Position numbers and translations under genes: made by a program. Of a stretch of 32,000 nt of DNA, positions 9,096 through 31,256 are shown in pieces (positions within the stretch are counted from its first letter, which is position 1; every line of letters starts with the position of its first letter). Source of the stretch: Candidatus Saccharimonadota bacterium (GTDB taxonomy: Bacteria; Patescibacteriota; Gracilibacteria; BD1-5; UBA6164); contig CP042461.1 of NCBI GenBank assembly GCA_004563595.2, forward strand, positions 450,001 through 482,000. Reading direction: 5' to 3'. The notes under the pieces are model-generated. The model saw only the letters and a program-made list of their open reading frames with translations. It searched no databases and was not told where the DNA came from.

Positions 9096-10127
9096 ATGAA
9101 TTTATTACAAGTTTTTTTCATTATTTCGGGACTTATTATATTCTTTCTTGCTCTTGATATTGCAAGAAAACAGAAATTTAATGCACTACATTTTATAGTG
9201 TTCATTTTAATCTGACTCGGCTTACTTGTTTTTACAGTTTTTCCAGGAAGTTTAAATGGGATTTGAAGATTTTTTGGGCTTCAAAGATGAGCAGATCTGC
9301 TCGTGTATTCAAGTATAGTTTTTTTGATTTATTTTACCTTGTTACTGTTAAGGAAGGTAGAAGGGAACAATGAAGACTTAACAAAACTTATTAGAGAAAT
9401 AGCAGTAAAGTGATGAACAAGGGAAAAAATTCATGGGAAAGAAATATTTTTAATTCGTTCATTCAATGAAGCAACAGTAATTTCATCCACTATTCAATCT
9501 ATTTTTGATGCTTGATATAAAAATATATTAGTAATAAATGATGGTTCAACTGATAATACAAATACAGTAATTAAAAGAGATTTTTGAGATAAAGTAATTC
9601 TTCTCGAGCACTACAAAAACAGGTGAGCAGGAGCTGCTTTAGAGACTTGATTTGAATATGTACGTAGGTATGGAAAGGTCGATTATGTTATTTGTTTTGA
9701 TGCAGATTGACAACATAATGTATGAGATGTTAAAACTTTTGAAAGTTATCTAAAAGAACATAAAAAAGTTGATATTTTATTGTGATCAAGATTTTTAAAG
9801 AAAAAACAAGTAGGGATGCCTTTTGCTAGGAAAGTAATTTTAAAGCTAGGTATTCTTTTTACGGCAGTCCTGAGTAGTATAAAATTAACTGATGCACATA
9901 ATGGCTTTAGAGTAATAAAAACAGATGTATTAGATGATATTCATATAACAATTGATGGTATGGGATATGCTTCTGAATTGATAGATATTATCACACAAAA
10001 AAAACTCGTATACAAAGAGGTTCCTGTGAATGTGAAATATACCAAATACTCTCTTAGTAAAGGACAAAAAAATAGCAATGCAATAAATATAGCATTTAAG
10101 TTTATGTGGAGTAAATTTTTTAAATAA
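9096..10127 (+). CDS. DUF2304-like membrane domain fused to a family 2 glycosyltransferase (polyprenyl-phosphate sugar synthase-like)
   Basis: 343 aa. The N-terminal ~105 aa have three hydrophobic helices (VFFIISGLIIFFLAL, FIVFILIGLGLLVFTVF, LLVYSSIVFLIYFTLLLL). The GT2 core follows: IFLIRSFNEATVISSTI...ILVINDGSTDNT...GAGAALETG...VICFDADGQH...DAHNGFRV. Confidence 0.8.
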
Positions 10128-10133
10128 ATATAG

Positions 10134-11309
10134 ATGAGTAAAAAAAATATAGTCCAGTTCTTACCATATTTTCCCCCTCATAAATGATGACTAGAAACTC
10201 ATGCAGAACAGTGGGCGAAATGGTGGGTGAAAAAATGATTTTGAGAGGTCTTTAATATGATTACAAATTTTGATCAAAACTATAATGATAAAGAAAAAAT
10301 TGTATTTGAGTGAACTATTATTGGATATAGAGAAAAATGAGTTGAAAATTTGGTAGTACCATCTCTTGAAATCATCTCAAATTTCCCAGTTTATAAAGTA
10401 TGGAGCAGAGAATATAAAATAATCCTTAGGTATTTAAAATCAAAAAAAATAGGAATAGTTATCACAAGGACCAGGTTTTTTCTTACCACATTTATATGAT
10501 GAGTATTTTCACGAAAAAATAAGATTAGATGGTGTCATATTGAGCATGGATCAGACTATGTGAAATTAAATTCTGCTTTTAAGAGTGCTGTTGCGAAGAT
10601 CTATGATAAAATAATTTGAAAATGGATTTTCAAAAAAACTGATATAATTGTATGAGTGAGTAATGCTTGCAAGGACTTTATACGCAGAGAATTTACTGAG
10701 AGAAAAGTTGAGGTACTGTATAGGGGGGTGGATTTTCCAAAGATAAAAAACTATACTTTTCTTACAGAAAAATATAGCGATAAAATTATTGTTTGATTTG
10801 TTTGAAGATTATATAAGTGGAAAAATATAGAAACACTAATAGAAGCTTACAGATGATTAGATAAAGTATTAAAAAATAAAATACAGCTTGTTATTGTTTG
10901 AGATGGAGAGGACTTGGATAGGTTAATACAGTTGGACATAAAGAAGGATATTTATTTTACATGATGAAAATCTTTTGAAGAAGCTTTGGAATTACAAAGT
11001 CAGTTTGATATTCACTTTCATACATCGAGCCCTGGTTGAGGTTTGGCAACAACTCTTCTGCAAGCTATGAAGCTGTGATGCTTTATCATCGCTACTCCAT
11101 ACGAATGAGCAAATGAAGTTATTGTAGATGAAAAGAATTGAATTTTATTAAAAGATGATAGCTTGAAAGAAATACAAAGTAGTTTAATAAAATCTATTGA
11201 TATGTTAGAGAAAAAGAAAGATTTTGCTTCTGTAAATCAAGGAGTTATAAAGAATAAATTTAGGTGGGAAGTAAATATAGAGAAATATTATAAACTTTTT
11301 GATTATTAA
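10134..11309 (+). CDS. Glycosyltransferase family 4 (GT-B)
   Basis: 391 aa. N-terminal FLPYFPPHKGGLETH. C-terminal HTSSPGGGLATTLLQAMKLGCFIIATPYEGANEVIVDEKNGILL (EX7E-type motif). The frame was checked triplet by triplet with no TAA/TAG. Confidence 0.8.
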
Positions 11310-13205
11310 ATGTGTTGAATAACTTGAATCATATATAAAAAAAACTCCAAAATTTCTATTTTGGAAAGAGATGAAGCTTTGAGTAATCAGGTTTCAGAGA
11401 TCGTACATAGAGGCCCAGATGATAGGGGGCATTTTATTGATGCGGATTTATGAGTATATTTATGACAGACTCGTTTATCTATTCAGGATATTTCACAGGC
11501 ATGACACCAGCCGATGATAAGTAGTGATCAAAATACAATCATTATATATAATGGGGAGGTTTTTAATTTTTTAGATCTCAGAAAAGAACTAGAGAAGGAT
11601 TTTAAATTTCAATCATGATCAGATACTGAGGTGATTTTGAACTGATATATTAAATATTGAGAAAAATTTTTTGAAAAATTAAATGGTATGTTTGCGATTG
11701 TTATTTATGACAAAATAAATAACAAGGTTGTTATATCAAGAGATACAGTTTGAATAAAACCCTTTTATTATATTAATAATAAAGATTTTTTTGCTTTTTC
11801 TTCTGAAATAAATTGATTAAAAATATATACAGATTGATATAATAAAAAAGGTATAACAAAAGTATTTACACAATGATATACGTACTGACTGGATACAATA
11901 TATGACTGAATATATAAATTAAAACAATGAAATTGTTTGAATATTCCAATACCATATGATTGAGCTTTTTCTGAGAATACTATACTTAGCCCTCAAAATC
12001 CTGTTTTAGAGAACGATAAACAGAAGTTGTTTCTTGAATTTGATAAAATATTAAAAGAGGCTGTAAATAAGGTTTCTATTTCAGATGTCCCTATTTCTCT
12101 TTTTTTATCTTGATGATTGGATTCTTCTTTGCTTGCGTATTACTTAAAAGAATCTTGAGTTGATTTTAAAGCATTTACTTTATGATTTAAGGAAGATCAA
12201 TTTGACGAATCAAAAATAGCAAAGAAAATATCAAATTTTTTATGAATTGATCATCAAACATTTTATATTAATAAAAAAGAAGTATTAGAAAACTTAGATC
12301 AAATATTGGCAATATATAATGAGCCTCACGTAGATTTTTCATCTATTCCGACATATCTTTTATCAAAAAAAGTGAGAAAGTCATGATATAAGGTTGCACT
12401 ATGATGAGATGGATGAGATGAATTATTCGGTTGATATCCAACACAATATTTACCAAATTTTCTTAAGTATTATTCATATGTCCCATTATTTCTTAGGAGA
12501 ATTTTTTCTAAAGGAGTTCATTTGTTTCCATCTAGCTTTGGAAAACTGTCATTTGATGAAAAGTTGAAAAGAGTATTGAATGGTTGAATGTATGAATATA
12601 AAAGAGCGCATTTTGAGTGGAAAAGAATTTTTAGGGATGATCAAATGAAAGATCTTTTTACTCAGGAATTTTATGATATGCATTTAACTGGGATGAAAAA
12701 TACCTATTTTAATGATTATTTTGATAATTCTACAAAAGATACAGATACTCAGATATCTCAGGTAATTGATGTAGACTTCCATACTTTTTTAGTAGATGAT
12801 TGTTTGGTGAAGTCAGATAGGTGTAGTATGAAAAATTGACTTGAAATAAGAGTGCCATTTTTACAGAATGAAATTATTGAGTTTGCAAAGAAAGTTCCAA
12901 TCTCATATAAAATCAAATGATTTAATACAAAAATATTTTTAAGAGAATTTGCTGATTTTATACTTCCAAAAGAAATCACGTGATTAAAAAAAATGTGATT
13001 TACCCCACCATTAAATCTATGGTTATTAGAAGATGATTTTAAAAAATATTTTAATAATTTGTTATCTGAAAAAAATATTATTAAAACCGGAATTTTTAAT
13101 TATAATTACGTGAATCAATTATTAGAAGACCACTTTAGTAAAAGAATTGATAGGACAAAGGAAATTTGGCTCATATCTAGTTTTGTAATTTTAAATTTAA
13201 ATTAA
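11310..13205 (+). CDS. asnB: Asparagine synthase (glutamine-hydrolysing)-type amidotransferase
   Basis: 631 aa. MCGITGI (catalytic Cys2; Gly3 and Gly6 are TGA), HRGPDD, YNGEVFNF, PP-loop LFLSGGLDSSLLA, LGGDGGDELFGGY, VKSDRCSM. The ATG directly follows the upstream TAA (taaatg). Confidence 0.88.
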
Positions 13206-13208
13206 ATC

Positions 13209-14387
13209 ATGGAAGTTTTAGTACTTACCCCAACATTTTATCCAAGGGTCTGATGAGCTGAAGAGTCTATGACTCAATTATACTCATGACTTGTTGAGAA
13301 ATGAGTGAATGTTCATGTTTTTACTCCAAAGGTTATAGCGAACTCTCAATTGTGAAGAGATAGCTTTATGGGAGTGAACATATTCAGATTTGTTTCTATA
13401 GAATATAATAAATATTCAAAATTTATATCATATAATATTTTTGGATTTATTTTTCTACTTTATTTTTTATTGAAAATGAAAAAAAGAGTAGATTTGATTC
13501 ATGTTCAATATCTATTTCCTATGGGGTTACTGTGAGTATTATTTTCAAAAATATTAAGAGTGCCCATAGTATTTTCTGAACATCATTATGGAACATGATC
13601 AGATATAAGTTCTTACACAGAAAATGGGAATTTAATAAATAAAATTTGTGCATTTATTTTCAAGAAATCAGATATCACGGTAAGTACATGATTTACTCAA
13701 AATGAGTTCTTAGAATATCTCAGCGATGGATCAGGTACTTCTAAGATTAAGGAAATTAAACTTTGAGCACCTGAAAAAAAAGAAAAAACGAATGTGGACA
13801 AACTTCTCTTAAGAAAAAAATATAATTTGAGTACAGAATTTGTTTTTGTATCTATATGAAGGTTAGTAAAAAGAAAAAAATTTGAGAAACTCATAGAGTT
13901 ATCTAAACATTTAAAGAAAAATTGCAATATTGATTTTACAATTTTAATTCTGTGAGAAGGAGGGGAAAGGTCATACTTAGAAGAACAAATAAAAGAAGAG
14001 TGACAACAAGGGAATATAGTATTACTTTGAAGTAAAATTTGAAAAGAAAAAGAAGAGTTATTATTTTTATCAGATTTATTTTTGTTTACTTCAGAATTTG
14101 AATGAAGTTGATTAGTATATACAGAAGCCAATGCTTTTTGATTGCCAGTAATCGCTTTTGAAAATGAAGCTGTAAATAGCATATATAAAAATAATCATTG
14201 ATGAATAGTTGTAAAAAGAGATATAAAACTTATGGGAGATGAGATTGAAAAAATCTTATCTGATAAAGGTTTATATGAAGATAAAATAAAGCAATGATAT
14301 ACCCTGCTTGAAGAATATAGTTGGAATAAATATTCTGAGAACTACTTTGATTTATTTCATCTAATCTTAAAAAAATATGAAAAATAA
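13209..14387 (+). CDS. Glycosyltransferase family 4
   Basis: 392 aa. MEVLVLTPTFYPRVGGAEESM; later FVSIGRLVKRKKFEKLIE and LFLFTSEFEGSGLVYTEANAFGLPVIAFENEAVNSIYKNNHGGIVV. Confidence 0.8.
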
Positions 14388-15381
14388 CATTACATATTTT
14401 GTCTCTGAATTTTTACTCTCCTTTAAATGATGAGCAGAGCATTCAATTTATAAAAAGATGATAGAGGATAGTGAAACAACCTATAAGTGTTTTACTTTTG
14501 ATAACACTTTAGATGAATGAGTTATTCATGAGAAGAATATCATTGTTTATAATTATCATTTTCCAATTTTTCTTGGTTTTAGTAGATTTTGGACATTACT
14601 TTTAAATTATTGAAAGATAATAGCTATAGTAAAAACTTATATACCAAATAATTCAGTTGTTTGGTCTCAATCTTTGATTGTTCCTTATATAAGTAATGTA
14701 CTGAGAAAAAAGGATTGTAAAAATACATATTTTTTACGAGATGAGCTTCAGTTAAATGAGTTTCATAATTATGAGGTATGAGCAAGAAAATATCTAAAGT
14801 ATATTAAAAATATTGTTGAGTTTTTCCCAATATTTCTCTATAAATATCTGAATAAAAAGGCCTTAGAACAATCACATAAAATCATTTCAAATTCTTTTTT
14901 CATACATGACTTATTGTTTAAAAAATATGCTTTAAACTCTAAGGTTGAATATCCTGAAATTGATTTGGATAAATTTAGAAAATGTAGACTTGAAAAGGCG
15001 AATCAAAAATATATAACATTTATATGAGTATGAAACGCTATGAAAGGGGATGATATTGCATTAGAAATAGCTGCTAAATTAAGAAAAAAAGAATTTTTAT
15101 TTATATGAAGTGATGCAGAATTTAAAAAATGAAATATTCATTATATTCCATGGCAAAAAGATATACTTGAAGTTTACAAACAAACAAATATCCTTATAGT
15201 TCCTTCTAGATGGAAAGAGGCTTATTGAAGGATAGTAATAGAAGCTCAGTCTTTATGAATAAAAGTGATCGTTAGTGATAGAGGATGATTAAGAGAGGCT
15301 TTAAACAACGAAAATAAAAATAATTATATTGCAGATATAAGAGATATAAAATTATGGGTAGATAAAATAATTAATAATTAA
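14377..15381 (+). CDS. Glycosyltransferase family 4-like
   Basis: 334 aa. FLLSFKGGAEHS near the N-terminus; ITFIGVGNAMKGDDIAL; ILIVPSRWKEAYGRIVIEAQSLGIKVIVSDRGGLREAL. The ATG overlaps the upstream gene by 11 nt. Confidence 0.7.
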
Positions 15382-15394
15382 TTTGAAATAATAG

Positions 15395-15976
15395 ATGAAC
15401 AGACTAGATGTCATTAAAGAACATATTAAATGAAAAGAAATATTAGACATTGGTTCTGCTTGATTTGAATCAGATAATTACTTTTTTAAATTTATCAGAG
15501 AAAATGCTTGAGATGTTGATGGCTTAGAACTAGATAATAAACTTGTGGAAAAATATAAGGAATATAATATAAAACAATGAAATGCTGAGACTTATATTTC
15601 AGAAAAAAAGTATGAGTTAATAATTGCTTGAGAATTAATTGAGCATCTATGAAATCCAGGGTGATTTTTTAAATGCTCACAAGAAAACTTGATCAAAAAT
15701 TGAACTCTTATTTTGACTACTCCGAATCCGTATTCCTTTCAAAATATATCAAGACATCTGTTTACATGAAAAGAAGCAAAGTGTAAGGAACATGTTACAT
15801 TATATAGTGAAATAACTATCAAAGAATTAGCTAATAGATATGGATTTAATTTATCTAAACTATATTTTGTACAGAGAGAAAAATTTTGATGAGTTAAATG
15901 ATGGGTAGAATATGTTACTTGAATATTATTTCCACATTTACGACCACGTATTATTTTTATATTTAATTTAAAATAA
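15395..15976 (+). CDS. Class I SAM-dependent methyltransferase
   Basis: 193 aa. Motif I KEILDIGSAGFE, acidic post-I DVDGLELD, and YELIIAGELIEHLGNPGGFF...NGTLILTTPN. Confidence 0.75.
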
Positions 15977-15985
15977 TTTATATAT

Positions 15986-16495
15986 ATGAAAATACATTAT
16001 TCTTTTTTACAAAAATTATCTGTTTTAATCTCTCAAAAAATAATGCCAATTATTGATGTTATTTTACCTTCTGATTTATTGATAACATATTGTTGGAAAT
16101 TTTTATGAGTTAAAATGTGAAAGAGATCTATTATTAAAAAATGAACAGTAATAAATGCTCCATTTATGGTTTCAATATGAAATAATTGTATAATCCATGG
16201 AAATTTAAAATCAAGATGATGAATATATATTTGAAATAGAGTTCAACTTATCGAAGGAGTTATGATTTCAACACAAAGTCATAATATTAATTCTTGAAAT
16301 TTTGAAGCAATTTATAAACCTGTTAATATTTGAGATAATTGTTGGCTGTCATTACGAACAACTATTTTACAATGAGTTACTTTAGCTAAATGAACAGTAG
16401 TAGCTGCATGAGCTGTAGTTACAAAAAGTAGTTCAGAAAATGATGTATTAGGTTGAATTCCAGCGAAAGTAATAAAAAAACGAATGTGTAAGTAA
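15986..16495 (+). CDS. Hexapeptide-repeat (LbH) O-acetyltransferase
   Basis: 169 aa. Repeats IGNNCIIHGNLKSRGGIYIGNRVQLIEGVMI...VNIGDNCWLSLRTTILQGVTLAKGTVVAAGAVVTK, resembling the WbbJ/maltose acetyltransferase type. Confidence 0.8.
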
Positions 16496-16506
16496 TAAAA
16501 AAATAT

Positions 16507-17658
16507 ATGAAAATATTGTATCTTCTCAATTCTGATATTTGAGGAAAATGAACTATTTGAAATAGGCTTATTCCAATTCTTAAAAATAAGTCTTTTTTGG
16601 CATGAAATGATATAAAAATTATTTCTAGACAAAATTATTTAAGTGATTTTGATAAATATAATGTTTCACCAATTCCTTTTAAATCTTTTATCCCTAAAAT
16701 ATTAACAGCAATCCCTATTTATATACATAAAAAATTTCCATCGAGGATTTTGCAAATTAAGATATTTGAATATTTTTCAATTAAATATTTGGATAAAAAT
16801 ACATTAGATTATGATTTAGTAATTTCATATGAATTTTCACCAAGACTTTATGCAGCAATAAAGAAAAAAAATCCTAAGATAAAAATAGTACAGGATGTCC
16901 CGATTGCATGAAATAATATGATTTCAGACCTGAATAAAAAAGAAAAAGTATTTGAAAACTTTGAAGAAAAAACTCCAGAATATTTTTTAGATTCAATTTG
17001 ATATGTAGATTACTTTATTGTCCCATCAGATTTTGTAAAAAAGTCTTTAATAAAATATGGAGTGAATAAAAATAAGATATCACAAATTCCATTTTGAGTT
17101 GATGTGGATAAATTTAAGCCCCTAGAAGAAAAAAACTATAATAATACTTTTGAGGTGGCTTTTTCATGAAATGTAAATAATAGGAAATGACTGAAATATA
17201 TGATAAAAGCTTGGAAAGAGTTAAACTTAACAAATGCTAAATTAAATATATATGGGAGAATTTATCCTGAGGTAAATAAGTATTTATGAGAGAAACAAAA
17301 ATATAATATTTTTACTCATTGATTTGTTGATTTAACAAAAGAACTTAATAAAAACTATATCTTCTTGTTCCCATCACTTCTCGAATGATCGGCAAAATCA
17401 ACTTATGAAGCATTAGCATCAGGTTTACCACTTATAACAACATACAATTCTTGAAGTGTAATAGATGATGGAAAAGAATGATTTATTATTCTGACTCAGG
17501 ATGTTAACACTATAAAAGAAAAATTATTATACTTTTATAATGATAGAGCTAAGTTAGAAGAGATGTGAAAAAATGCTAGAAAATTATCTTTGAGCTATAC
17601 GTGGGAAAATTATACAGAAAATTTAATTAGATTTTATAATAAAGTTTTAAATAAATAA
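16507..17658 (+). CDS. Glycosyltransferase family 4
   Basis: 383 aa. MKILYLLNSDIGGKGTIGNR; FEVAFSGNVNNRKGLKYMIKAW; IFLFPSLLEGSAKSTYEALASGLPLITTYNSGSVIDDGKEGFII. Confidence 0.8.
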
Positions 17659-17659
17659 T

Positions 17660-18757
17660 ATGATGCGTAAATTATTATATATACATAATTGAGATTTCCC
17701 TGCTGAGAGTGCAAATAGGGTGCAGGTAATAAATATGTGTGAATGATTTGTTGAAAATGATATAGATGTATCATTGCTTGCTTTTGAATCAGATATGTTT
17801 CAAACTGAAAATAACCTATTTGATAGTTTTTGAGTGAAAAATAAATTTCATTTAATTCTGATTAAAAAATTATGAAATTATTATATTAGGAGCATAAAAA
17901 TATTTTTTTACTTTACTTTTCAATTAAGAAAAGAATTTGATTCAATTTTTACGAGAGATTTATTTGTCGCATTTTTAATAAAGGTATTTTTTCAAAATAA
18001 AAAAGTAGTCTATGAATTACATGAAATTAATGAACGTGTATTATGGAAAAAATTATTTAAAATCACTTTTGATAGATTAGATAAGTTAGTAGTTATTAGT
18101 AATTGATTAAAAATAGAGTTAGTTAATTCCTGATATAATTGAAATAAAATAGAAGTTTTACATGATGGTGTAAACTTATGAAGATTTGTATGATTAAAAA
18201 AAGAAATTTGAAATGATAAAATAAATATAACTTATACTTGAAGTTTAATTCCATGGAAATGAGTAGAAACTTTATTAAAAGCATTCGAAACTATACATAT
18301 AGATAATGTGTATTTAAATATTTATTGATGAAATAAAAATGAAATTTGGGTATTAAAGAATAAATACAAGGATAATAATATTATCTTTCACTGAAGAGTA
18401 GATAATAAATATATACCACAAATTCTTATGAATTCTGATATATTAGTTTTACCTAATTCCTGAAAATACAAAATATCAACAGACTACACATCCCCGTTAA
18501 AATTATTTGAATATATGGCTGCGTGAAAAGTAATTATAGCGAGCAATTTACCATCAATTAATGATGTTTTGAGTGATGAAGAATGTATCTTTTTTAAAGC
18601 CGATAATTGTATTGATTTAAAAGATAGGATATTACTTGTTCTATGAAAAAAAGTAAATATAGAAAAGATGAAAAATAATTGTAATAGTAAAATTAAAAAC
18701 TATACTTGGAAAATTAGGTGATGAAAAATTTATTTAAATAAGCAATGAGAATGATAG
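17660..18757 (+). CDS. Glycosyltransferase family 4
   Basis: 365 aa. LLYIHNGDFPAESANRVQVINMCEGF; ITYTGSLIPWKGVETLLKAF; ILVLPNSGKYKISTDYTSPLKLFEYMAAGKVIIASNLPSINDVL. TAG stop at 18755-18757. Confidence 0.78.
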
Positions 18758-19827
18758 CATTTTTATTTTGAACACGACCTGAAATCATTAAGCTGTATCC
18801 ACTCATAAAGTATTGCTTGAATAATGATGTTAAATTCATATTAGTACATAGTAATCAGCATTATTCACATAACTTAGATACAGTTTTTTTTGAGGAATTG
18901 AAAATACCTAATCCTAGTTATAATTTAAATATTTGATCTTGATCTCATGCATTTCAAACTGCAAGAATTTTAGATTGATTAGATGAAGTTTTTAATCATG
19001 TAAAAATTGATTTTCTTTTTGTTCATGGTGATACAAATACTACTTTAGCTTGATGACTGTTTGCTTCAAAAAAATGAATAAAACTAGTACATATTGAAGC
19101 TTGATTAAGAAGTTATGATAGGTCTATGCCAGAAGAAATTAATAGAATAATAGTCGATAGTATTTCCGATTACCTATTTACCCCGACAAAAGAGGCAAAA
19201 AATATATTATTAAATGAATGAATTTCTTCCGGTAAAATTTTAGTATCATGAAATACTATAGTTGATGCTATAAAATTAGCTTTAGACAATATAATATCTA
19301 AAGAAAAATTAACTTCTATCTTTAATCTTAATGGCCCCTTTATTTTGTTAACAATTCATAGGCCATCCAATACTGTATCGGGAGATTTTTTTATTAAGAT
19401 TCTAAATTATATTAATGATTTTGCTTGTAAAAAACATTTTCAAGTAATTTTTCCTATTCACCCTAGAACAGAAAAACTATTATCTGAAAAAGAAAAAGAA
19501 ACTTTTCCTAATATTAGTTTTATTGAACCAGTATGATTTTTAGAAATGTTAGCCTTAGAAAAATATTCAGACTTAATTATCTCAGATAGTTGATGAATAC
19601 AAGAAGAAGCATATATATTGAAAAAAAAGATGTTGGTTTTAAGAAACAATACTGAAAGACCTGAAGTTATGGAATCATGAAATATCAATCTCTTACCACC
19701 TGAAAACTTAGTAAATATAGAAAAAATTTTTAATAAATTGAATTTTAATCAACAAAAATATAGTAATGTATTAGGTGATGGAAGTTCTGCTAAGAAAATT
19801 TTTAATTTTTTAAATAGTAGTATATAA
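18745..19827 (+). CDS. wecB: UDP-N-acetylglucosamine 2-epimerase (non-hydrolysing)
   Basis: 360 aa. FLFGTRPEIIKLYPL, FVHGDTNTTLAGGLFA, VHIEAGLRSYDRSMPEEINR, ILLTIHRPSN, PIHPRT, ISDSGGIQEEA. It overlaps the upstream gene by 13 nt. Confidence 0.92.
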
Positions 19828-19830
19828 ATT

Positions 19831-20982
19831 ATGAAAATATTGATGACCTCAGAAACTTATTTTCCAATAATTTGATGAGCTGAATGGCATATTTATTATT
19901 TAAAAAAGAAATTAGAGGAACAAGGAATAGAAGTGATTTTATATACAACTACACCTTGAACATCAAAATTAGATTCTTTAAATATTATTAGAAATGAATT
20001 TGATAAAATTTCTTCATTTTTTTCTAACTTTAAGCAAATATTTACCCTATCTAAAGACGTTGATATTATACATTCTCATTATAGCTATAAATTAGCTTTG
20101 GTGTCATGACTTGTTTCAATTTTAAGAAGAAAACCATTTATAATAACGCAACATTGATTTTGACTTTTAGATCCTCAATATTCAACATGATTACTATTTA
20201 AAATTATATTTAAAACTTGTCGTTATTTTAGTATGAAAATTTCTGATAGGGTTATTTCTACAAGTGATGACTTAAAAGGCTTCTGTTTAAAGTATGTGAA
20301 TAAAAATAAAATTATTGATATAACTAATTGATATGATGATACTATTTTTAGATTATCAAATAATATAAATAAATCTATAACAAATTGACTGCCAACTTTT
20401 ATTACGATTAGAAGGTTTGCGAAAAAAAATTGAATACATATCTTAATTGATATATTGTCAGAATATAAAAAAAAGTACTGAGATTTTAAATATTATATGA
20501 TTTGATATTGAGCACTTGAAAAAGAAATTTTTTTAAGAATTAAGGAGTATTGATTAGAAAATAATATTATACATATAATGAATTCCGATCATAAAGAGCT
20601 TGTTGGTTATTTAAATAAATCTGATATAGTTTTTTTTCCTTCAAGTGCTGAATCAACGAGTTTAAGCTGTATTGAAGCCATGTGAATGAAAAAAATAATA
20701 GTTGCAAGTCGAGTGTGATGACTTATTCAACTTATTTGAAAAAATGAAGAGAGAGGTTATTTTTTAGACTTATATGACTGGACCTCATCAAATTATAACT
20801 GTCCTATGAAAATATCAGATGAAAAAATAATTTTGGCTGCAGATAATATAAGTAATATAATTGAATCAAAAAATGGTAATATAGAGAAAACTAATAATGC
20901 TTATGATTTCGTGAAGGCTAATTATACTTGGGATATTATAGCAAAAAAGACTATTATTTTATATAATGATTTGATTAAGTAA
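19831..20982 (+). CDS. Glycosyltransferase family 4
   Basis: 383 aa. MKILMTSETYFPIIGGAEWHIYYL; FITIRRFAKKNGIHILID; VFFPSSAESTSLSCIEAMGMKKIIVASRVGGLIQLI. Confidence 0.8.
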
Positions 20983-21914
20983 TGCTTTTTACAAGAAAAA
21001 AATATAAAGATATTGTATCAATTACTAATGAAGTATTTCATGATTTTGAAAATGCTACATATGATGATATTCACCCAGAAATATTTAACAAAGAGGAAGA
21101 ATCTATTTTAAAGCTGATATCTTTCATTAATAAAGATAGTTTTAAAAAATTTGATATATTAGATATTTGAACTTGAACCTGATTCATTCCAATGTGCCTT
21201 GAAAAAAATAATCTTAAATTTAAATCTTTCACTTGTTTTGATTGATCTAAAAAAAAATTAGATATTGTTAATTCTAAACTCAAGGATATTTGAACAAGTA
21301 GTAAGTATTATTCAAAAAAATTTCCTGAAGATTTGGAAGAAGTAAATTCTCATAAATATGACTTAATAACTATCAATTCTGTATTACATCATATGGTTGA
21401 TTATAAGGAAGTATTAAATTGATTATCAAGTAATGTTAAAAAAGGATGATTTCTATTAATTAATCATGAACCTAATAATAATTTTAATTATTCTATATGA
21501 TACTTTTTATATAAAATTTTAAATTATTTTGACATCAAATGAATATTATTATCAAATTTACACTCAAAAATATATTATTATTTAATTGATAAAATATGAA
21601 AAGATTTATCATGCAGTCCCTATTACCTAACAGCCAAATATTTGTATGAACATAAGTTAACAGATATCATATTGACCCCTACTCAAGTTAGTCAAATAGT
21701 TGATTATAATTCTCCTACATCTGGTTTATATTTTAATCCACACTATACTCTAGATTTAGATTTTTTATGAGAGTTATGATTCAAACAAGTATTTAAGATA
21801 GAAACAGATTTTTTATCAAAATTATCTTCTAAATATCCTAATTTAGAAAAATTAGTAAAGAAATTTAACTGAACTTGATCAATACAATGAGTTTTATTAT
21901 ATAAAAATAACTAA
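20982..21914 (+). CDS. Class I SAM-dependent methyltransferase
   Basis: 310 aa. Motif I FDILDIGTGTGFIP (both Gly of GTGTG are TGA), YDLITINSVLHHM, KKGGFLLINHEPN. The ATG shares one base with the upstream TAA (taatg). Confidence 0.72.
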
Positions 21915-21921
21915 CAATACG

Positions 21922-22725
21922 ATGAATAAGGAAAATTATAAAAATTATCATGATGAGATTAATGAAAAACGAATTCATTCATCATATCCGATAAGAGCAT
22001 ATGCGCATTTAAGACAATATGATTGTTTTATAGATAATATCCCAAGTGATGTAAAAACTGTTCTAGAAGCCTGATGTTGAGAGTGAACTTTAACAATCAG
22101 AATAGCGAAAAAATATCCTAATTTGAATATCAAAGCATTTGATATATGAGAAGAAAATATCAAATCAGCTAAATTATTAGCAAAAAAAGAGTGAATAAAA
22201 AATATAGAATTTTTTAATTGAGATGCAGAAAATATAGACTTCCCTGATAATTCTTTTGATTTAGTTGTGAGTTCTCATGTCTTGGAACACCTGCCTTCGT
22301 TTGATAAATGATTAAGTGAATTAAAAAGAGTATCAAAAAAACATGTTTTTTTTGCTGTGCCAACATGTTTAAACTTATCCTGTTTTTCTTTATTATGATA
22401 TGATAATTATTGGAAATTTTCTACTAGAAGTATTTTTTCATTGGGTGTTGGTTTTTGCAGAGTATTATTTTCGTTCATAACTTTTTCAGAGTGACCTGAT
22501 GAGTGATATTGACCAAATAAGGATATACATATATGGAGGTTTCCTTGGATAGTTAGAAAAAAAATAAAAAAATCTTGATTAAAATTAATTTCATATAAGG
22601 CTTCAAGTTTACTTTTTCCATATTTCCTCCTTTGACTCTCGAAAAAAATAGATGAAAGTTTTTCTGCTAAATCGTATTTTAGAGAATTTTGATTTTGAAC
22701 AACTTTTTATTGTAGGAAACAGTAA
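21922..22725 (+). CDS. Class I SAM-dependent methyltransferase (Methyltransf_11-like)
   Basis: 267 aa. VLEAGCGEGTLTIRIAKK, AFDIGEENI, FDLVVSSHVLEHLP. The C-terminal ~110 aa are partly hydrophobic and unassigned. Confidence 0.72.
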
Positions 22726-23976
22726 TTAACTTTTTCTTAATAAAAATATACTAAGCAGTAGTCATATTATTCTTGTTGTTATTCTTCATATTATTGCTCA
22801 AACAATTCAAAATAGCAATATTCATATTAAAGGCAATATTACTAATAATATTGGAAGTATCGTATTAAAAATATTTATAAATGTAGTTTTTCTTTTGGAA
22901 TTTAAATATGTTATTATTAAACTACTAGGAAAAGCAATAAAACTTAACATGAAAATCTGACTATATAATAAGGCTGACTCCAAATATCAAGGGTAAAATA
23001 ATTTAAAAATAAATGGAGCTAAAATTATATAGGTAATAATTAAAATAAAAGTAATGAAGAAGAACTTAGGGAGGTGTTTGTATATATCTTTTTTTGTAGT
23101 ATTTTGTTTTGTCAGTTTTGGTAAAAACATTTGAGATATAGGCCCCGTTATATTTTTGACTTGATCGGGTAAAAGTGTAGCAATAGTATAAATAGCTAAC
23201 TCTTCGAAACTGAGATAAGTTCATATGATTATCTTATCAAAATGATTTGCAATAATTAATGGGATCTGACCAAAGCTAATTTTTTTTCAAAAATTAATTA
23301 ACTCATTATTAGAAATATTATTTTTAAGATAATGTTTTGGTATTAAATAATAGCTATAATATCATCAAATGATGATATTTGATAACATAAAAGAAATTAT
23401 TGATATGGTTAGGTCTTTGGTAATATAAATAGATAATCAAGTAATTGTAAGTTGGAAAAGATGAAAAAAAGATTCATATTTTGCTTTTTTATTAAATAAT
23501 TCTTTTCAATTGAAGTAAAATATGAAGTAAGTAGATGTGGTATAAAATGGGAATAATAGTCAAATAAATAGAAAAATAAAACTAGCATACTCTCTTCAAT
23601 ATACGTAGGCATACAAACTTGCTATGATAAGTCATAGACTTCAAAGTAAACTATATTTAATAGCGAGCTTTATAGCTTGTTTGTAAGTCCCCTCTTGTTT
23701 TTTTACAATTCATTGAATAATAGATGAACTGAGTCATGGAAGTCAAGAAATTGCAAAAATTCAAATAACTCACATAATAAAACTCCATTGACCAAATTGT
23801 TCTTGAGTAAGGAACCTAGTAAGTAAAATACTTAAAGTAAAGAATTTAAATATAACTGCAAATTGACTTAGGTATAACCAAAATCAATTCTTCAAAAAAT
23901 ATGGTAAATCTAATCACCATTTTTTTCAGTAAGTTTCACTTAACTTATATATTTTACTTTGAAGGTTTTTAAGCAT
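22726..23976 (-). CDS. MOP-superfamily oligosaccharide flippase (Wzx-like)
   Basis: 416 aa, multi-pass and hydrophobic throughout. ...FAVIFKFFTLSILLTRFLTQEQFGQWSFIMGVIGIFAI... and ...FEELAIYTIATLLPDQVKNITGPISQMFLPKL... The frame was checked for TAA/TAG. Its stop codon abuts the stop of the convergent methyltransferase (taa|tta). Confidence 0.7.
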
Positions 23977-23977
23977 T

Positions 23978-24934
23978 TTAGATCTTATAATATTCTTTAT
24001 ACCAATTCACAAATTTTTCAATAGTATCTTCAATCTTTATTTTTGGTTCCCAATTGAGAGTCTTTTTGGTATGTTCTATATCTGCCCAAGTAGATTTTAC
24101 GTCTCCATCTTGCATTCAAACATAGTTTCTTTTGGCTTTGATTCAGGTATGTTTTTCAAGTAAACTAATCATAGTTTCTAGTTGAGTTGGAGTATCGTTT
24201 CACAAGTTGAATATTTCATATTTTGATATTGTATGGAGACTCTTTATTACTCAATCAACTATGTCATCTATATCAGTGAAATCTCTCTCCATCTTTCAAT
24301 GATTATAGATATCTATAGGTTTTCATTCAAATATGGATTTCGTAAATTTGAAATATGCCATATCAGGTCTCCCATATGGTCATTGTACTGTGAAAAATCT
24401 GAGTCATGTTGTTGGAAGTTCAAACAGATGCGAATACGTATGAGCTATAAGTTCATTTGATTTTTTAGTAGCAGCATATAAAGAAATAGGGTTATCAACA
24501 GGATCTTCTACTGAAAAAGGTTGTTTTTCATTTTTTCAATAGACACTGGAGCTTGATGCATATACAAAATTTTTCACCGTATACTCTTTGGCTAGTTGAA
24601 TTATATTTTGAAATCATACTAAGTTTGATTTTATATATGCTTTTGGATTTTCTATACTATATCTTACTCATGCTTGAGCAGCTAAATTACAAACCTTATC
24701 TATTTTATGTTGCTTAAAAACTTCTTCTAATTCTTCTGAGTTACTTAAGTCTCATTTATAAAATATGAAATTTTCATAAGTTTTTAGTATATTTCTTCTT
24801 GATATTTTTAGGTCAACGTCATAGTAGTCATTCTCGCTATCAAATCATATTATTTTAGCTCAGTTTTCTAATAATTTTTTGGCTAAATGAAATCATATAA
24901 ATCAGCTCGTTCATGTTATTAAGATGGTTTCCAT
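23978..24934 (-). CDS. NAD-dependent epimerase/dehydratase, UDP-glucuronate 4-epimerase-like
   Basis: 318 aa. ILITGTSGFIGFHL (Rossmann), [18 protein letters not shown] (YxxxK), and [21 protein letters not shown]...[10 protein letters not shown], typical of the Cap1J/GAE group. The stop lies 1 nt before the downstream flippase ATG. Confidence 0.82.
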
Positions 24935-24978
24935 TATTTGAAGTTCATTATAAATAATTTATTACATTTAGTATACTT

Positions 24979-25022
24979 TAAAAAAATAAAATTCAAGCAA
25001 TTGCTTGAATTTTATTTTTTTA
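24979..25022. terminator. 44-nt perfect palindrome / bidirectional terminator downstream of ugd
   Basis: ttaaaaaaataaaattcaagcaa|ttgcttgaattttattttttta is self-complementary across 24979-25022. The core stem is aattcaagc/gcttgaatt, with A-run and T-run flanks. Its right end overlaps the ugd stop codon (25020-25022). Confidence 0.6.
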
Positions 25023-26339
25023 TCTTCATATCGATGAGTAATCAAATCATAATTTTTCCATTTCTTCTTTTCTCCATAAATTTCTTCCATCAATTATAAC
25101 ATTCCCATTCATTAATGATTTCATTTTCTCAAAATTTGGAATTCTAAATTCATCCCATTCTGTGAGAACGATAAGAGCATCAGATTCATTTAAAACGTCA
25201 TAGTAATTCTCTCAGAATGTAATTACATTATTTCAATTATATTCTTTTCTCATATGACTCATTGCTACAGGATCAAAAGCTTTGATTTCTTTTACTCAGA
25301 GTTCAAGGAGCTTATTAATAACATCGATACTAGGAGCTTCTCTAATATCATCAGTCTTTGGCTTGAATGAAAGTCACCATATAGAAATAGTTTTTCATTC
25401 GAGGCTATCAATTTTTTCTAACACTTTGTCTATTACTTTTGTTTTTTGTAGTTTGTTTACTTCTTCAGTTGCTTTAATTATTTTGAAATCATAATTGTAC
25501 TCTTTTCATGTTTCAATTAATGCTTGTACATCTTTTGGAAAACAGCTTCATCCGTATCATATACCTGCTTGTAAAAATCTATGTCCAATTCTATCATCAA
25601 GTCATATTCATTTACTGATATCTCAAATATTTGCTCATACTATCTCAGCAAAGTTCGCTATTTCATTGATAAAACTTATTTTTGTTGCTAAAAATGCATT
25701 TGCTGCATATTTAATTATTTCAGATGATTTTAAGTCTGTGAAAATAAGAGGTCTATCAGTTCTAATAAAAGGTTTATATATTTCTTTCATTATTTCCTTT
25801 GCTTTTTCTGACTCTAGTCAGCATACAATTCTATCAGGCCCCATGAAGTCTCTTATAGCCATTCATTCTTTTAAAAATTCAGGATTTGAAACTATATCTA
25901 TTTTTACCTGAGCAGATCTTTTTTTGATTTCTTCTGATATAATATCTTTACATAACTTACCCGTTCATACGGGAACCGTAGATTTATTTATAAAAACTTT
26001 ATAATCACTGACATTTTCTCATACAGTTTGTGCTACGGCTTTTACAAATCTAAGATCAGCTTTGTGATTTTCATCTGGAGGAGTTCATACTGCACTAAAA
26101 ATAGCTTTTCAAAATGCTATTCATTTTTTTGCATCAGTAGAAAAGACTAATCTTCATTCTTTATGATTTCTGAGAACTAGTTCCTCTAAACCGGGTTCAT
26201 AAATAGGAATAATTCATTTCTCTAAATTATCGATTTTATTTTGGTCTATGTCTATACACATAACTTCATGTCATACCTCAGCCAGACATGTTCCAGTTAC
26301 AAGTCATACATATCAAGTTCAGAAAACTGTTATTTTCAT
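25020..26339 (-). CDS. ugd: UDP-glucose 6-dehydrogenase
   Basis: 439 aa. [26 protein letters not shown] (all three Gly of GTGYVG are TGA), AVGTPPDE, NPEFLKEG, GIGYGGSCFPKDV (catalytic Cys), [14 protein letters not shown]. The frame was checked triplet by triplet. Confidence 0.93.
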
Positions 26340-27847: not shown

Positions 27848-27995
27848 TGAGTGAAAAATCATAAATATTACAAACCTTGATTATGCCTTCAAGTGTAACT
27901 TTTTTAACATATTTTTCAAAAGTTTTCTTTACAAATCTGATAAATTCTTACACTATTTTTAATAACATGAATATTATTTATTAAATTTTAAAAAA

Positions 27996-30900
27996 ATGGT
28001 GAGTTATTTATTAAAAATTTTTATCCTCGTTCTCTTCTCTTTTTTTATAATCTCATCTTTCTATTGAGTCACAGCTCATCAAGAAAATTTTGATTGATAT
28101 ATGTCTTATATAGCTATTATATCAGTGATTTATAGTATTTATAAATACTTGCAAGTTGAATTCTCTGTAGATAATAAAGCTATTTTTACACCATTTAAAA
28201 TATTTTGATTCTTTTGTCTTCATTTACTCGTTCTTTGTAGTCTCTTCTTTGTATTTAATGGAGTCTCATTTATAAGCTGATTCGGTTTAATTCTAAAAAT
28301 ACTATTCTTTAGCTTATTACCTATTTTCATAATTCTCACATCAATTTCATTTTGAAAAAAGATAATTTCATTTTTTCCAGAATTTTCGAAAGAATCAGAT
28401 ATATTTCAATTTATAATTTCTCTCTGACTTTGATTCTTCTCATTTCTTTTCTTACTCAGCATAATTGGAATGTTTTGATTCTATCATATGTGAGCAGTTT
28501 TTCTTATCTTAGGATTATTTCTAATATTTTCATATAAACAATTCAACTCTTTGGCTGACGGTTTTTTTAATTATAGAATAGAACTAGATATAAAAGAATG
28601 AATGTATCTGAAGCTTATTTCAGCTGAATTCTTATTCCTTGTGTCTACGTTACTCTTATCAGTAAATTTAATTAGTATTGTAAGACCTTTTCCAATTGGT
28701 TGGGATGATTTATGAGCATATATGAACCTACCACATCTCTTAGCAGAAGGTTGAAGTATGATATCTTTTTGATGAATGTACTCATGGCAAATGTTTACAG
28801 GGATTTGATATATGTTCAACTCTCCAGTGCAAGCATTTTACCTGAATAATGTAGGATGATTCATGTCTTTCATTATCTTAGTTCTTATTACATCAGATTT
28901 ACTGAAAAGTAAGCTAAAAAAGACATATATAAATATACCTATGTTAGTAGGAACTTTGTTTATTGCTTTACCTATGGTTGTTTTTCAACAAGCAAAGGAT
29001 ATGAAACTTGATATTGGTTTATTCTTTGTCAGTATCATCAGTATATATTTATTATATAAGTACATATTAAAAGAGACTAATAAGACTTTATGAACAAAAA
29101 TAAAAGAAAAAATATCTCAAATCCCTTCTTCTTTTAAAAAAGGAACTATTGAAATACCTCATGATTTATTATTTATTTGAATAATTTGAATTTTAGCTTG
29201 ATTTGCTTTTACCATTAAATTCACATCACTTTTACTTATATCTGCATTATTTTGAGTTCTGTTTTTTAGTAGACTTTGAATGACTTGATTTTTGTGATAT
29301 TTGTTTTTATATTTTTCAATATTTACAAAAGGAGGGCTTTGGTCAATGATGAATGTAGTGTATCCAAAAGAAAATATAGAGTTTATAAATATATTTTCAA
29401 TTATATCACTTGTAGTTTGAATTGCATTTTTAGTGTTTTCTATTCGTAAGAATACAACAAATTTTAAAAAATTACTTTTAGAGTTGGGAGTGTTTTTACT
29501 CGGAACATTTATTTCCCTTTCTCCTTGGCTTTCTAAAAATATCTATAGCTCATATCCAGATATATCAATATCATATATACTGAATGGAAACTCAGTTTCA
29601 TTTGAAAAAGATTATTTAAAATTGTACTCTGAGACTGATTTAAAAGTAATTAAGGATAATATATCAAAGGCTATACAAAGTGATGATTCCGTAAGAATTG
29701 GAGAAGATTATTGAAGGTATTTTGGTTATGAAAAAGGTATCAATAATTATGTTAAGCTTCCTTGGAATCTTACTATGCAATCAAATCAGTGATGAGAATT
29801 TACAGGAATTAGTTACTTATTTTTAGCTCTTTTACCTATAATATTTTTATTCTTACCGTTTAAAAATAGATATTTTGCTTTTTGAGTATTAGCCATGCTT
29901 TTATTGGAATTACTTATTTATGTTATTCCCTCATCAAGGATATTCTTCACGTACCTATTTTCTCAGTTCTCACTTCCATGAGGATACAGTATAATATTAG
30001 CAGTATTTTTAGTCCCTCTTATTTACTTTGTTCTTACATTAAAAGATACAACGAAAAATACCTTATTTAAAATGAACTTAGTATTTGCTTCATTTTATAC
30101 TTTTCTTTGGACTATATCAGCATTTGGAATTGTTTGGTACGGAATCACCATGTATTTCAATTTCTTATTAATGATTGCTATAGGTTTGTACTATCTGTCA
30201 TGTTACAAAGAAACTGATAGCGAAAAAGAAAAGCAAGTAAAAATGTTTGGATCAATTATAGCATTTTTAATTATAGTTATATATATATTTAATTCAGTTT
30301 TTCCTCATAGTTTTAACAATTTGAAATCTGCTTCCTATAAAGAATACAAGCTTGGTGATCTCACAACAGCTGAAGCATCATACCTATACCATCCAGAGTA
30401 TTTACCAATTCTTTTTGAGTTGAATATTGCTGAAGATAAAAGAAAGGACTTCATAAAAAGTAAATTAAAACCCTCTACTATTATTGGCGTAAAATGAATT
30501 GAAGACTTTGATATAGTAACATTGACTCAAATCTTGAGACAATTATCAAATTTAAAAAACGAATTATCAAATGATGCATATAGTTCATTACAAGATATAT
30601 ATTCTGGTATCTCAAATCCAAAAGAAGAATTCAAAAATAAAAAATGAATTTATAGAATAGGAACTTTTCTTAAATACCATATATCTGAAAATAATGTAAG
30701 ATTATTAGAGGATTCTCTTGTAACACAATTTGATAATTATATTTATACTTGAAATATTGATACTACAGTTGATAACATTAAGAAACTTTGACTTTGATAC
30801 CTACTGGTAGATTTAAATGCTCCAACTATTGATAGAGATCCTCGTCACGCTTTAACAACAAGGTATGAGAAGTTGTTGAGTATTTTTACTTCAGAAAATC

Positions 30901-31256
30901 TAGAGTTAGTAGAAACAGATAGCATATGTTTGAAAATTGCACTTGAATCTTATGGTAATTCAGAGAAACAGAGCAAAGACTTAACTCGTTATTATAATTT
31001 GGCTTGAGTGAACTATGAAAGCTATACAGATGAATGAAAAATAGTAAGGAGATGAGATAAACAAATTTTATGTTATAGTTATATATATAGACTTATAGCG
31101 GAAGATAAAGTAGATAGTAATAATTATTCATATTTATTAGGACTTAAAGCTCTAATAGATATGAATAAAGATACATTAAATAATGATAATGCTATTTTAC
31201 AATTTCTACACTCAAAAATACCTGCAGGGTATAAAGTTTTATTTAAAGTGAAATAA
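27996..31256 (+). CDS. Giant integral membrane protein, GT-C-fold glycosyltransferase-like (PMT_2/ArnT-like module) with N-terminal TM extension and C-terminal soluble domain
   Basis: 1086 aa in one frame (checked triplet by triplet), with many predicted TM helices. The loop after the 7th helix reads VRPFPIGWDDLGAYMNLPHLLAEGG, matching the acidic D-[DE]-x3-Y...L..G first-loop signature of GT-C enzymes. The last ~250 aa are hydrophilic (IEDFDIVTLTQILRQL...LVDLNAPTIDRDPRHALTTRYEKLL...). Confidence 0.6.

Follow-up and report, generated by a model that had tools for sequence, protein, structure and literature searches.

A candidate polyprenyl-phosphate-sugar synthase, flippase and GT-C transferase system bracketing a hypervariable glycan cassette in a Gracilibacterium

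How is a cell-surface glycan completed when the genes that appear to build it include no recognizable priming transferase, polymerase or exporter? The question is raised by a locus at positions 9096 to 31256 of a 32-kb stretch of a Gracilibacterium genome (contig CP042461.1, positions 450,001 to 482,000 of the forward strand; hereafter, the window). The locus opens with g06, a gene for a predicted polyprenyl-phosphate-sugar synthase of glycosyltransferase family 2 (GT2), and closes with g22, encoding a MOP-family flippase, and g23, encoding a giant membrane protein; between them lies a cassette of sugar-modifying and glycosyltransferase genes. The original prediction, made from the DNA alone, saw in this combination the logic of extracytoplasmic glycosylation. 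The reading we favor, with reasonable though not strong confidence, is that g06, g22 and g23 form a synthase, flippase and GT-C system resembling GacIJKL of streptococci and PpgS-Rv3779 of mycobacteria, and that it serves a hypervariable, wall-associated glycan of the Gracilibacterium.

Translation of the window with table 11 gave only two open reading frames (ORFs) of at least 150 aa and was rejected; with tables 4 and 25, the same DNA becomes a dense, near-fully coding array. Because UGA occurs at glycine positions of the GxGxxG motif in a uridine diphosphate (UDP)-glucose 6-dehydrogenase (Ugd) and a short-chain dehydrogenase/reductase (SDR), as well as at Walker A glycine positions in RecG, it was read as Gly (code 25); its reading as Trp (code 4) was discarded since it occupies canonical Gly positions. 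Under code 25, the locus resolves into the 18 tightly packed genes originally described, from the ATG of g06 at 9096 to the stop codon of g23 at 31256, arranged as 13 genes on the + strand, four on the − strand and then the large g23 on the + strand. Spacers lie between −13 and +13 bp in the + block; the widest two gaps of the locus are of 85 and 133 bp. The − strand genes, in transcription order, are MOP, Ugd, SDR and MOP, as had been stated. Pfam and NCBIfam searches of the code 25 translations, from which all assignments below are taken, bore out the functions initially listed for 17 of the 18 genes, the exception being g23.

The product of g06 (9096 to 10127, + strand) combines an N-terminal DUF2304 domain (residues 4-105, 71.9 bits) with a Glycos_transf_2/GT2 domain (residues 120-281, 66.1 bits), i.e., it holds in a single polypeptide both the enzyme and the membrane partner that characterize the GacI-GacJ and PpgS-Rv3632 pairs. 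Its best NCBIfam match is PpgS (NF058614; 177.6 bits, below the cut-off of 370) and its second is AglJ. The best 120 homologues, 54-64% identical, are all built as the same fusion, and those with a name are without exception Gracilibacteria. g06 heads the + operon, and its orthologues follow recG in loci L090, L091 and L092 from other species. The database copy of the protein (P0382) is 97% identical to that in the window, and translation of UGA as Trp is probably the reason for the difference.

At the other end, g23 (BIG; 27996 to 31256, + strand) encodes a 1086-aa polytopic protein with approximately 20 transmembrane (TM) helices followed by a soluble C-terminal domain of approximately 315 aa. 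It has no Pfam match at E ≤ 10, no NCBIfam match and no match in profile searches of PDB sequences, and no consistent Pfam match (E ≤ 10) was obtained for 15 correctly translated members of its family. The family is large: the first search returned at least 269 clusters, every one of them annotated as hypothetical, and 1206 representatives score E ≤ 1e-3; a relative is encoded by 339 species-representative genomes. All named homologues from the first searches belong to Candidatus Gracilibacteria.

The relationships of this protein emerged from structure prediction. Two AlphaFold2 models were compared with known structures using Foldseek, one of a 50%-identical homologue, P0008 (model 1; pLDDT 89.7, pTM 0.90), and the other of P0001, the mistranslated database copy of the window protein, which lacks the first 158 residues (model 2; pLDDT 83.3). 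With model 1, the Archaeoglobus fulgidus oligosaccharyltransferase (OST) AglB was the sole match at E < 1e-3 (E 1.5e-4, probability 1.00), with weaker matches to ALG3, PimE, AftA and the AglB C-terminal globular domain. With model 2, four AglB entries came on top (probability 1.00), followed by DPY19 (0.99), after which the next match dropped to 0.06. The AglB structures matched were 7e9s, 3waj, 3wak and 5gmy, with E values across the models of 1.5e-4 to 1.2e-3; probabilities were lower for ALG3 (0.33-0.60) and PimE (0.30). A link at sequence level was provided by distant family members, five of nine of which match PF13231 PMT_2 (E 1.2e-5 to 8.5e-3) over a stretch that maps to g23 residues 267-440; neither g23 nor its close relatives have a PMT_2 match. 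Given the Foldseek probabilities and this borderline PMT_2 bridge, g23 very probably has a GT-C fold. The "GT-C-like" label of the original prediction was hence right at the level of the fold, as judged by structure prediction and remote homology, a relationship not visible to sequence hidden Markov models (HMMs).

As in GT-C enzymes, a conserved acidic motif lies in a predicted extracytoplasmic loop of g23. This motif, R230-P-F-P-I-G-W236-D237-D238 (RPxPIGWDD; 28683 to 28709, + strand), stands just upstream of the PMT_2-like stretch; it and its W236-D237-D238 are invariant in 61 and 70 sequences and are kept in distant relatives. With only one Lys or Arg in 50 residues, the loop is placed outside by the positive-inside rule, the loop charges of the protein alternating cleanly, and we predict it to be catalytic. 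A second conserved acidic motif, D335-M-K-L-D339 (DMKxD; 28998 to 29012, + strand), occupies a short loop that the charges also place on the outer face. The C-terminal alpha/beta domain (residues 771-1086; 30306 to 31253, + strand) contains two invariant features, a D939-L-N..T-I-D946 motif and a pair of Cys residues (C978 and C1026), and weakly resembles the AglB C-terminal globular domain (3vu0, probability 0.51). It is confined to the Gracilibacteria branch, distant relatives matching profile positions ~5-815 only. WW[DE] and W-x-D-[YFW]-G motifs are absent from g23 and from the 15 correctly translated family members, and none of these gave an STT3 (PF02516) HMM signal at E ≤ 10. Because it lacks a WWDYG-type motif, g23 is not an STT3; we take it to be the founding member of an undescribed GT-C family.

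Most public members of this family are mistranslated. In the database copy of g23 (P0001), translation of UGA as Trp introduces 31 Gly-to-Trp errors, and an internal Met start removes 158 residues; only 16 of the 120 homologues listed have the low Trp content expected of a code 25 translation. The family consensus consequently shows spurious W at Gly columns, and the mistranslation partly explains why the family has gone unnoticed.

The conservation of the locus was then found to be concentrated at its ends. The layout RsmG, RecG, g06, cassette, and g22 divergent from g23 recurs in four other species. In JAQVGG010000002.1, 23.8 kb separate g06 from g23 and the cassette comprises GT1, GT2, GT4, GT6 and GT8 enzymes plus toxin-antitoxin genes; in JAAXTY010000001.1, the distance is 18.3 kb and the cassette consists of five GT2s and rhamnose genes. 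L092, represented by its g06 end only, has GT4s, an aminotransferase and a methyltransferase, and L036 has the same arrangement with a smaller cassette of ~8 kb. Furthermore, g23 and g06 homologues have 10 identical longest-contig sizes in common, six of them of 16-39 kb. A synthase (g06), a flippase (g22, and here also g19) and a GT-C protein (g23) are thus linked across species.

Across the compared loci, orthologues are limited to RsmG, RecG, g06, g07, g22, g23 and sometimes Ugd. The GT4 gene g07 (10134 to 11309, + strand; Pfam GT4 domains) is the sole cassette glycosyltransferase gene with orthologues elsewhere, full length and 40-42% identical in L092, L090 and L036 and present also in L024, L026 and L072, while a 64% identical orthologue of the Ugd gene g21 adjoins that of g22 in L002. 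The AsnB-type amidotransferase, five GT4s, three methyltransferases, left-handed beta-helix (LbH) acetyltransferase, WecB and second MOP protein (g19) have no orthologues in these loci. Co-conservation of the whole 18-gene block was therefore rejected: the view of the locus as one unit stands for g06, g07, g22 and g23, whereas the other 14 genes are species-specific cargo. G+C content follows a similar division, with 22.6-25% over the species-specific cassette (13000 to 23000) as compared with 28-31% for the conserved flank to its left, 26-28% for the surroundings of g21-g23 and 26% for the window. Toxin-antitoxin modules (AbiEi/AbiEii, PemK, Phd/ParE and HicA) were seen in or beside the variable glycan cassettes of relatives (L090, 12137-14201; L091, 11091-11634; L084, 1832-2387), which fits cassette turnover by horizontal exchange.

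None of these cassettes supplies the missing steps. The Pfam and NCBIfam searches of the window returned no PF00953 or PF02397 phosphoglycosyl transferase (PGT), Wzy, Wzz, WaaL or ATP-binding cassette (ABC) exporter. The notion that one of the GT4s is a hidden priming enzyme was discarded, all six matching generic GT4 models only, and the HMM searches gave no sign that any GT4 or flippase call is really a PGT or Wzy. Judged by precomputed Pfam matches, the cassettes of the four other species (L092 at its g06 end only) contain no priming transferase, polymerase, ligase or second flippase. The initial remark that no priming transferase, polymerase or exporter can be recognized accordingly extends to the equivalent loci of four other species. 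Such an absence does not by itself make the pathway unconventional, because the streptococcal Group A carbohydrate is primed by a separate enzyme, GacO; the gacO gene lies outside the gac cluster.

These data bear on whether the locus could encode a conventional Wzx/Wzy pathway, with g23 as a very divergent polymerase or ligase for pyrophosphate-linked repeats and g06 adding a side branch through another enzyme. In favor of this, the locus encodes two Wzx-like MOP proteins, HMMs recognize known Wzy proteins only with difficulty, and g23 is the sole unassigned polytopic protein in the locus. However, the Wzx-like proteins are the only such components in the window and the related loci, where no PGT, Wzy, or Wzz or other polysaccharide co-polymerase (PCP) was found, and one would expect a polymerase to change along with its repeat unit, whereas g23 is conserved while the cassette changes. 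The structural neighbors of g23 (AglB, DPY19, ALG3 and PimE) moreover place it, on our reading of the published GT-C classification, in the AglB/PMT/ALG branch and not in that of Wzy, WaaL and SEDS proteins. We regard this explanation as highly improbable.

The most constant partner of g23 is g22 (MOP2; database protein P0121; 26330 to 27862, − strand), which encodes a 510-aa MOP-family flippase (PF01943, 63.7 bits). Its best NCBIfam match, SpoVB, is full length and weak (39 bits versus a cut-off of 372); it has no match to the MurJ models (PF03023 and NCBIfam MurJ) and none to PDB entries by sequence. Its homologues number 458 at ~50% identity, some of them with weak PF03023 MurJ matches. The neighborhoods (±10 kb) of 82 g23 homologues were examined, with counts taken from the 55 loci having at least 5 kb of upstream sequence. 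Within this distance of g23 homologues only g22 recurs, a homologue being found no more than 10 kb upstream in 44 of the 55 loci. It points in the same direction as g23 in 29 loci, where the two are mostly separated by 7-107 bp, and the divergent orientation of the window is seen in 21.

In a deeper Gracilibacteria clade at ~34-36% identity, the pair is embedded in an envelope cluster with the order MraW / LCP, class A penicillin-binding protein (PBP1A), FtsE-like ABC ATPase, g22, g23 / MurD. Because the core pair sits there with LCP, PBP1A and MurD, the acceptor of g23 is probably a wall component. The loci with this cluster are L055, L061, L062, L064, L065, L067, L071, L074, L078 and L083; SecD, an HD protein and GroEL are also encoded near the array.

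The same neighborhood could be taken to mean that g22 is the housekeeping flippase for lipid II, a functional MurJ of the SpoVB/YtgP type, and that g23 belongs to the core wall enzymes and acts on peptidoglycan or a conserved wall polymer. Adjacency to the cassette would then reflect a recombination hot spot, and g06 would serve another GT-C enzyme or another purpose. In many species, g22 and g23 do have PBP1A and the FtsE-like ATPase on one side and MurD on the other, MraW and LCP being close by; no sugar genes occur near g23 in L003; g22 aligns over its full length to the SpoVB model and some homologues show the weak MurJ matches; the window has an additional Wzx-like protein, g19; and complete peptidoglycan synthesis has been reported for Gracilibacteria (PMC6851277). 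Against this, g22 itself lacks an NCBIfam MurJ match and falls far short of the SpoVB cut-off, in the clade of the window it is embedded among sugar genes (Ugd and RmlB), and the g06...g22-g23 bracket is found again in four or more species. Nor do distant relatives of g23 pair with Mur genes, their partners being GT2 and DUF2304 genes. A purely housekeeping role hence seems quite unlikely.

Those distant relatives come from outside Gracilibacteria and use the standard code. In L084 and L086, the g23 relative lies divergently beside separate GT2 and DUF2304 genes, accompanied in L084 by GT4/GT1 genes and a Wzm/Wzt exporter and in L086 by a PMT_2 protein and an SLH-domain protein. These neighborhoods connect the GT-C family with synthases of the GacI/GacJ type on evidence that does not depend on the window. 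The GT2, flippase and GT-C logic first proposed for the locus gains support on both counts, since the GT2 and the flippase/GT-C pair also bracket glycan cassettes in other species and since the distant GT-C relatives adjoin GT2 and DUF2304 genes. Judged by this context, i.e., the presence of g06 in the locus and of GT2/DUF2304 genes beside the distant relatives, g23 may use a polyprenyl-phosphate-linked donor.

What such a donor would carry is where the principal alternative diverges. The locus could encode a self-contained pathway of the euryarchaeal kind, in which, with polyprenyl monophosphate as the carrier, g06 would prime the glycan, g07 and the variable GT4s would lengthen it in the cytoplasm, g22 would flip it and g23 would transfer it whole to protein or wall. 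Archaea offer a precedent, as the GT2 enzymes AglK and AglJ start the archaeal N-glycan on dolichyl phosphate (Dol-P) and Euryarchaeota transfer from the monophosphate carrier (PMC8993221). In keeping with this, the conserved genes amount to a candidate initiator (g06, at the head of the + operon), a second-step glycosyltransferase (g07), one flippase (g22) and one outer-face transferase (g23); AglJ is the second-best NCBIfam match of g06, and A. fulgidus AglB entries are the best structural matches of g23. Additionally, no PF00953/PF02397, Wzy, WaaL, Wzz or ABC exporter is present in the window or in the L090/L043, L091/L002 and L092 cassettes. We nevertheless consider this pathway doubtful. 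No bacterial precedent is known, and all characterized DUF2304/GT2 pairs make single-sugar donors. g23 has neither the STT3 WWDYG motif nor an STT3 HMM signal; its remote sequence link is to PMT_2, and DPY19, its second-best match by structure, takes the sugar from Dol-P-Man (7zli is a Dol25-P-Man complex). PMT-type enzymes transfer single sugars. Finally, priming enzymes can be encoded outside glycan loci. In its most far-reaching form, which we think unlikely, the system would be a lineage-wide bacterial counterpart of euryarchaeal N-glycosylation, with g06 priming, species-specific glycosyltransferases extending, the MOP protein flipping and g23 transferring the hypervariable glycan whole to surface proteins or the wall. 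If true, such en bloc transfer would constitute the first monophosphate-primed, OST-like pathway in Bacteria.

Several observations weigh against the synthase, flippase and GT-C system that we prefer. Three of the other four species have no flippase but g22 in the locus, and none of the four has a priming transferase, polymerase or ligase there, a situation that fits the self-contained, g06-primed pathway at least as well. g06 is not found within 10 kb of g23 in the LCP/PBP1A clade. g22 could be the housekeeping lipid II flippase. At 177.6 versus 370 bits, g06 does not qualify as a PpgS equivalog. As to the fold, global TM-scores of g23 against GT-C structures are 0.28-0.37, with a root mean square deviation of ~18 Å, and the best PMT_2 match among distant relatives (26.0 bits) falls borderline to the gathering score of 26.1.

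On balance, the GacIJKL/PpgS-Rv3779-like system would work as follows. On the cytoplasmic face, g06, a GacJ/Rv3632-type DUF2304 domain fused to a GacI/PpgS-type GT2, would make a polyprenyl-monophosphate sugar. A MOP flippase, namely the conserved g22, to which g19 may contribute in this genome, would move the lipid-linked sugar to the outer face, where g23, using its outward-facing WDD loop, would pass it from the carrier lipid to an extracytoplasmic acceptor. The cassette, with its six GT4s, WecB, Ugd and glucuronate 4-epimerase, amidotransferase, three methyltransferases and acetyltransferase, would supply the variable glycan. In the likeliest arrangement, this glycan would be primed by an enzyme encoded elsewhere, flipped by g22 and fixed to the wall by an LCP enzyme, with g06 and g23 decorating it outside. 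The searches show what the genes encode, that the bracket genes are conserved and that g22 pairs with g23, and they support a GT-C fold for g23; the donor, the acceptor and the transfer by g23 of one sugar as opposed to a whole glycan are inferences.

The content of the cassette gives an indication of the glycan. g08 (11310 to 13205, + strand) encodes an AsnB-type glutamine amidotransferase (TIGR01536, 419 bits, above the cut-off of 267; Pfam Asn_synthase and GATase_7) with a probable role in uronic acid amidation and with no orthologue in the four compared loci. It is followed on the same strand by two species-specific GT4 genes, g09 (13209 to 14387) and g10 (14377 to 15381), the latter recognized only in its C-terminal half (Glycos_transf_1, 61.9 bits), and by g11 (15395 to 15976), for an S-adenosylmethionine (SAM) methyltransferase (Methyltransf_23, 50.8 bits). 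g12 (15986 to 16495) encodes a WcaF-like LbH O-acetyltransferase (Hexapep; NF007797 WcaF, 81.6 bits, below cut-off). Next come the GT4 genes g13 (16507 to 17658) and g14 (17660 to 18757), then g15 (18745 to 19827), encoding WecB, the non-hydrolyzing UDP-N-acetylglucosamine (GlcNAc) 2-epimerase that forms UDP-N-acetylmannosamine (ManNAc; TIGR00236, 316.6 bits, above the cut-off of 210; Epimerase_2, 321.9 bits). The + block ends with a GT4 gene, g16 (19831 to 20982), and two genes for SAM methyltransferases recognized by Pfam, g17 (20982 to 21914) and g18 (21922 to 22725). The GT4 calls for g09, g13, g14 and g16 rest on Pfam/NCBIfam matches.

On the − strand, g19 (22726 to 23976) encodes the second, shorter Wzx-like MOP flippase (416 aa; PF01943 and PF13440), for which equivalent loci of the other species compared hold no orthologue. 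g20 (23978 to 24934) encodes an SDR resembling UDP-glucuronate 4-epimerases, with a Pfam Epimerase match and PDB matches to 5u4q (362 bits), the Bacillus cereus UDP-glucuronate 4-epimerase 6zl6/6zla (183 bits) and MoeE5. g21 (25020 to 26339) encodes a Ugd/TuaD-like UDP-glucose 6-dehydrogenase (TIGR03026, 462 bits, above cut-off; TuaD, 568 bits). Judging from these enzyme families (WecB, Ugd with the 4-epimerase, amidotransferase, methyltransferases and acetyltransferase), the glycan probably contains ManNAc and glucuronic or galacturonic acid with methyl, acetyl and amide decorations.

The locus is flanked by housekeeping genes: those for Sua5, RsmG and RecG lie to its left, and that for RibF lies to its right. 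Scans for tRNAs and Rfam families gave no matches across the window. A promoter and terminator scan of this AT-rich DNA returned the same counts as shuffled sequence, so operon boundaries could not be drawn. RecG is shorter in the window (673 aa; 7014-9035) than in relatives (827-867 aa; L090, 6928-9531; L091, 7460-9943; L092, 4794-7379), which have extra DUF559 or acetyltransferase domains; BLAST alignments cover only 53-61% of the window protein at 65-82% identity, and RecG appears to carry lineage-specific insertions. Further left, g02 (2738-5557) encodes a 939-aa protein that has about seven TM helices at its N terminus and one at its C terminus, along with a VIT domain (PF08487, 38.6 bits) and a tail rich in Gly and Ser; it is not present in the syntenic locus L092. 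An 809-bp gap (660-1468) holds two small ORFs within 750-1338, with no tRNA or Rfam match. By eye, the ORF from ~789 resembles a Phd/YefM-type antitoxin and the other a toxin of the RelE/ParE type whose reading frame is broken by a TAA at 1210-1212; the pair may be a decaying toxin-antitoxin system. A few genes downstream of g23 in several species, after those for TGT, an HD protein and an M50 peptidase, there is a gene for a conserved giant protein of 1300-1400 aa without a Pfam match (L001, 12542-16264; L002, 18439-22683; L003, 20665-23783; L036, 18720-22622).

Gracilibacteria are uncultured, recoded, host-dependent bacteria belonging to the candidate phyla radiation (CPR), and their lifestyle depends on cell-surface contact. 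A shared core of synthase, flippase and new GT-C protein, the last with relatives in 339 species-level genomes, combined with a changing cassette, leads to a hypothesis for how these cells might build and diversify their coat, in a manner that may be likened to O-antigen or capsule types. In our literature searches, we found no paper describing the g23 family, its MOP pairing, the conserved bracket or the hypervariable cassette; Sieber et al. 2019 (PMC6851277) briefly mention polysaccharide genes "no. 444-460" in a closed Gracilibacterium genome of 1.343 Mb.

Two groups of enzymes offer partial parallels. AglB resembles g23 in that numerous TM helices precede a globular C-terminal domain and in the acidic motif of an outer loop, and the locus recalls euryarchaeal agl clusters in being headed by a DPM1/AglJ-type GT2 and in having Ugd and methyltransferases. 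However, g23 lacks the WWDYG motif and STT3 HMM signal, scores TM values of only ~0.3 and occurs in a bacterial host, and en bloc transfer and a protein acceptor are conjectural for it. With PMT_2, ArnT and DPY19 enzymes it shares the remote HMM link, the second structural match (DPY19) and a polyprenyl-monophosphate sugar synthase in the same locus, but it is below any PMT_2 score, much larger and equipped with an unrelated C-terminal domain.

Closer in organization is the galactosamine modification of mycobacterial and corynebacterial arabinogalactan, in which the DUF2304 helper Rv3632 stimulates the synthase PpgS (Rv3631) and the GT-C enzyme Rv3779 transfers the sugar to the wall polymer outside the membrane (PMC9671496). 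PpgS is the best NCBIfam match of g06. The helper is nevertheless fused to the enzyme in g06, which lies below the equivalog cut-off; g23 belongs to a different, unannotated family from Rv3779; and a MOP protein is present here, whereas the mycobacterial flippase is unknown.

The parallel extends to the flippase in the Group A carbohydrate (GAC) system of Streptococcus pyogenes. There, the GT2 enzyme GacI makes GlcNAc-P-undecaprenol with GacJ as its DUF2304 partner (GacJ-GacI fusions being on record), GacK is a proposed flippase of the Wzx family, and the polytopic GT-C protein GacL transfers the sugar to the wall polysaccharide; the polymer is primed by a separate GlcNAc-phosphate transferase, GacO, and its attachment by LCP proteins is presumed (bioRxiv 10.1101/180810). 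The Gracilibacterium locus likewise has a GT2 with DUF2304, a MOP/Wzx protein and a polytopic GT-C protein, and, outside Gracilibacteria, the L084 locus has a Wzm/Wzt exporter in common with the GAC cluster. In contrast to GacL, which has 12-13 TM segments, g23 is 1086 aa long, with about six extra N-terminal helices and a C-terminal domain of ~315 aa. The main glycan appears here to be flipped by a MOP protein, whereas the Gac system uses the GacD/E ABC exporter. Also in contrast to the Gac system, the machinery genes in the Gracilibacterium flank a hypervariable cassette, and g22 and g23 are core genes across the lineage.

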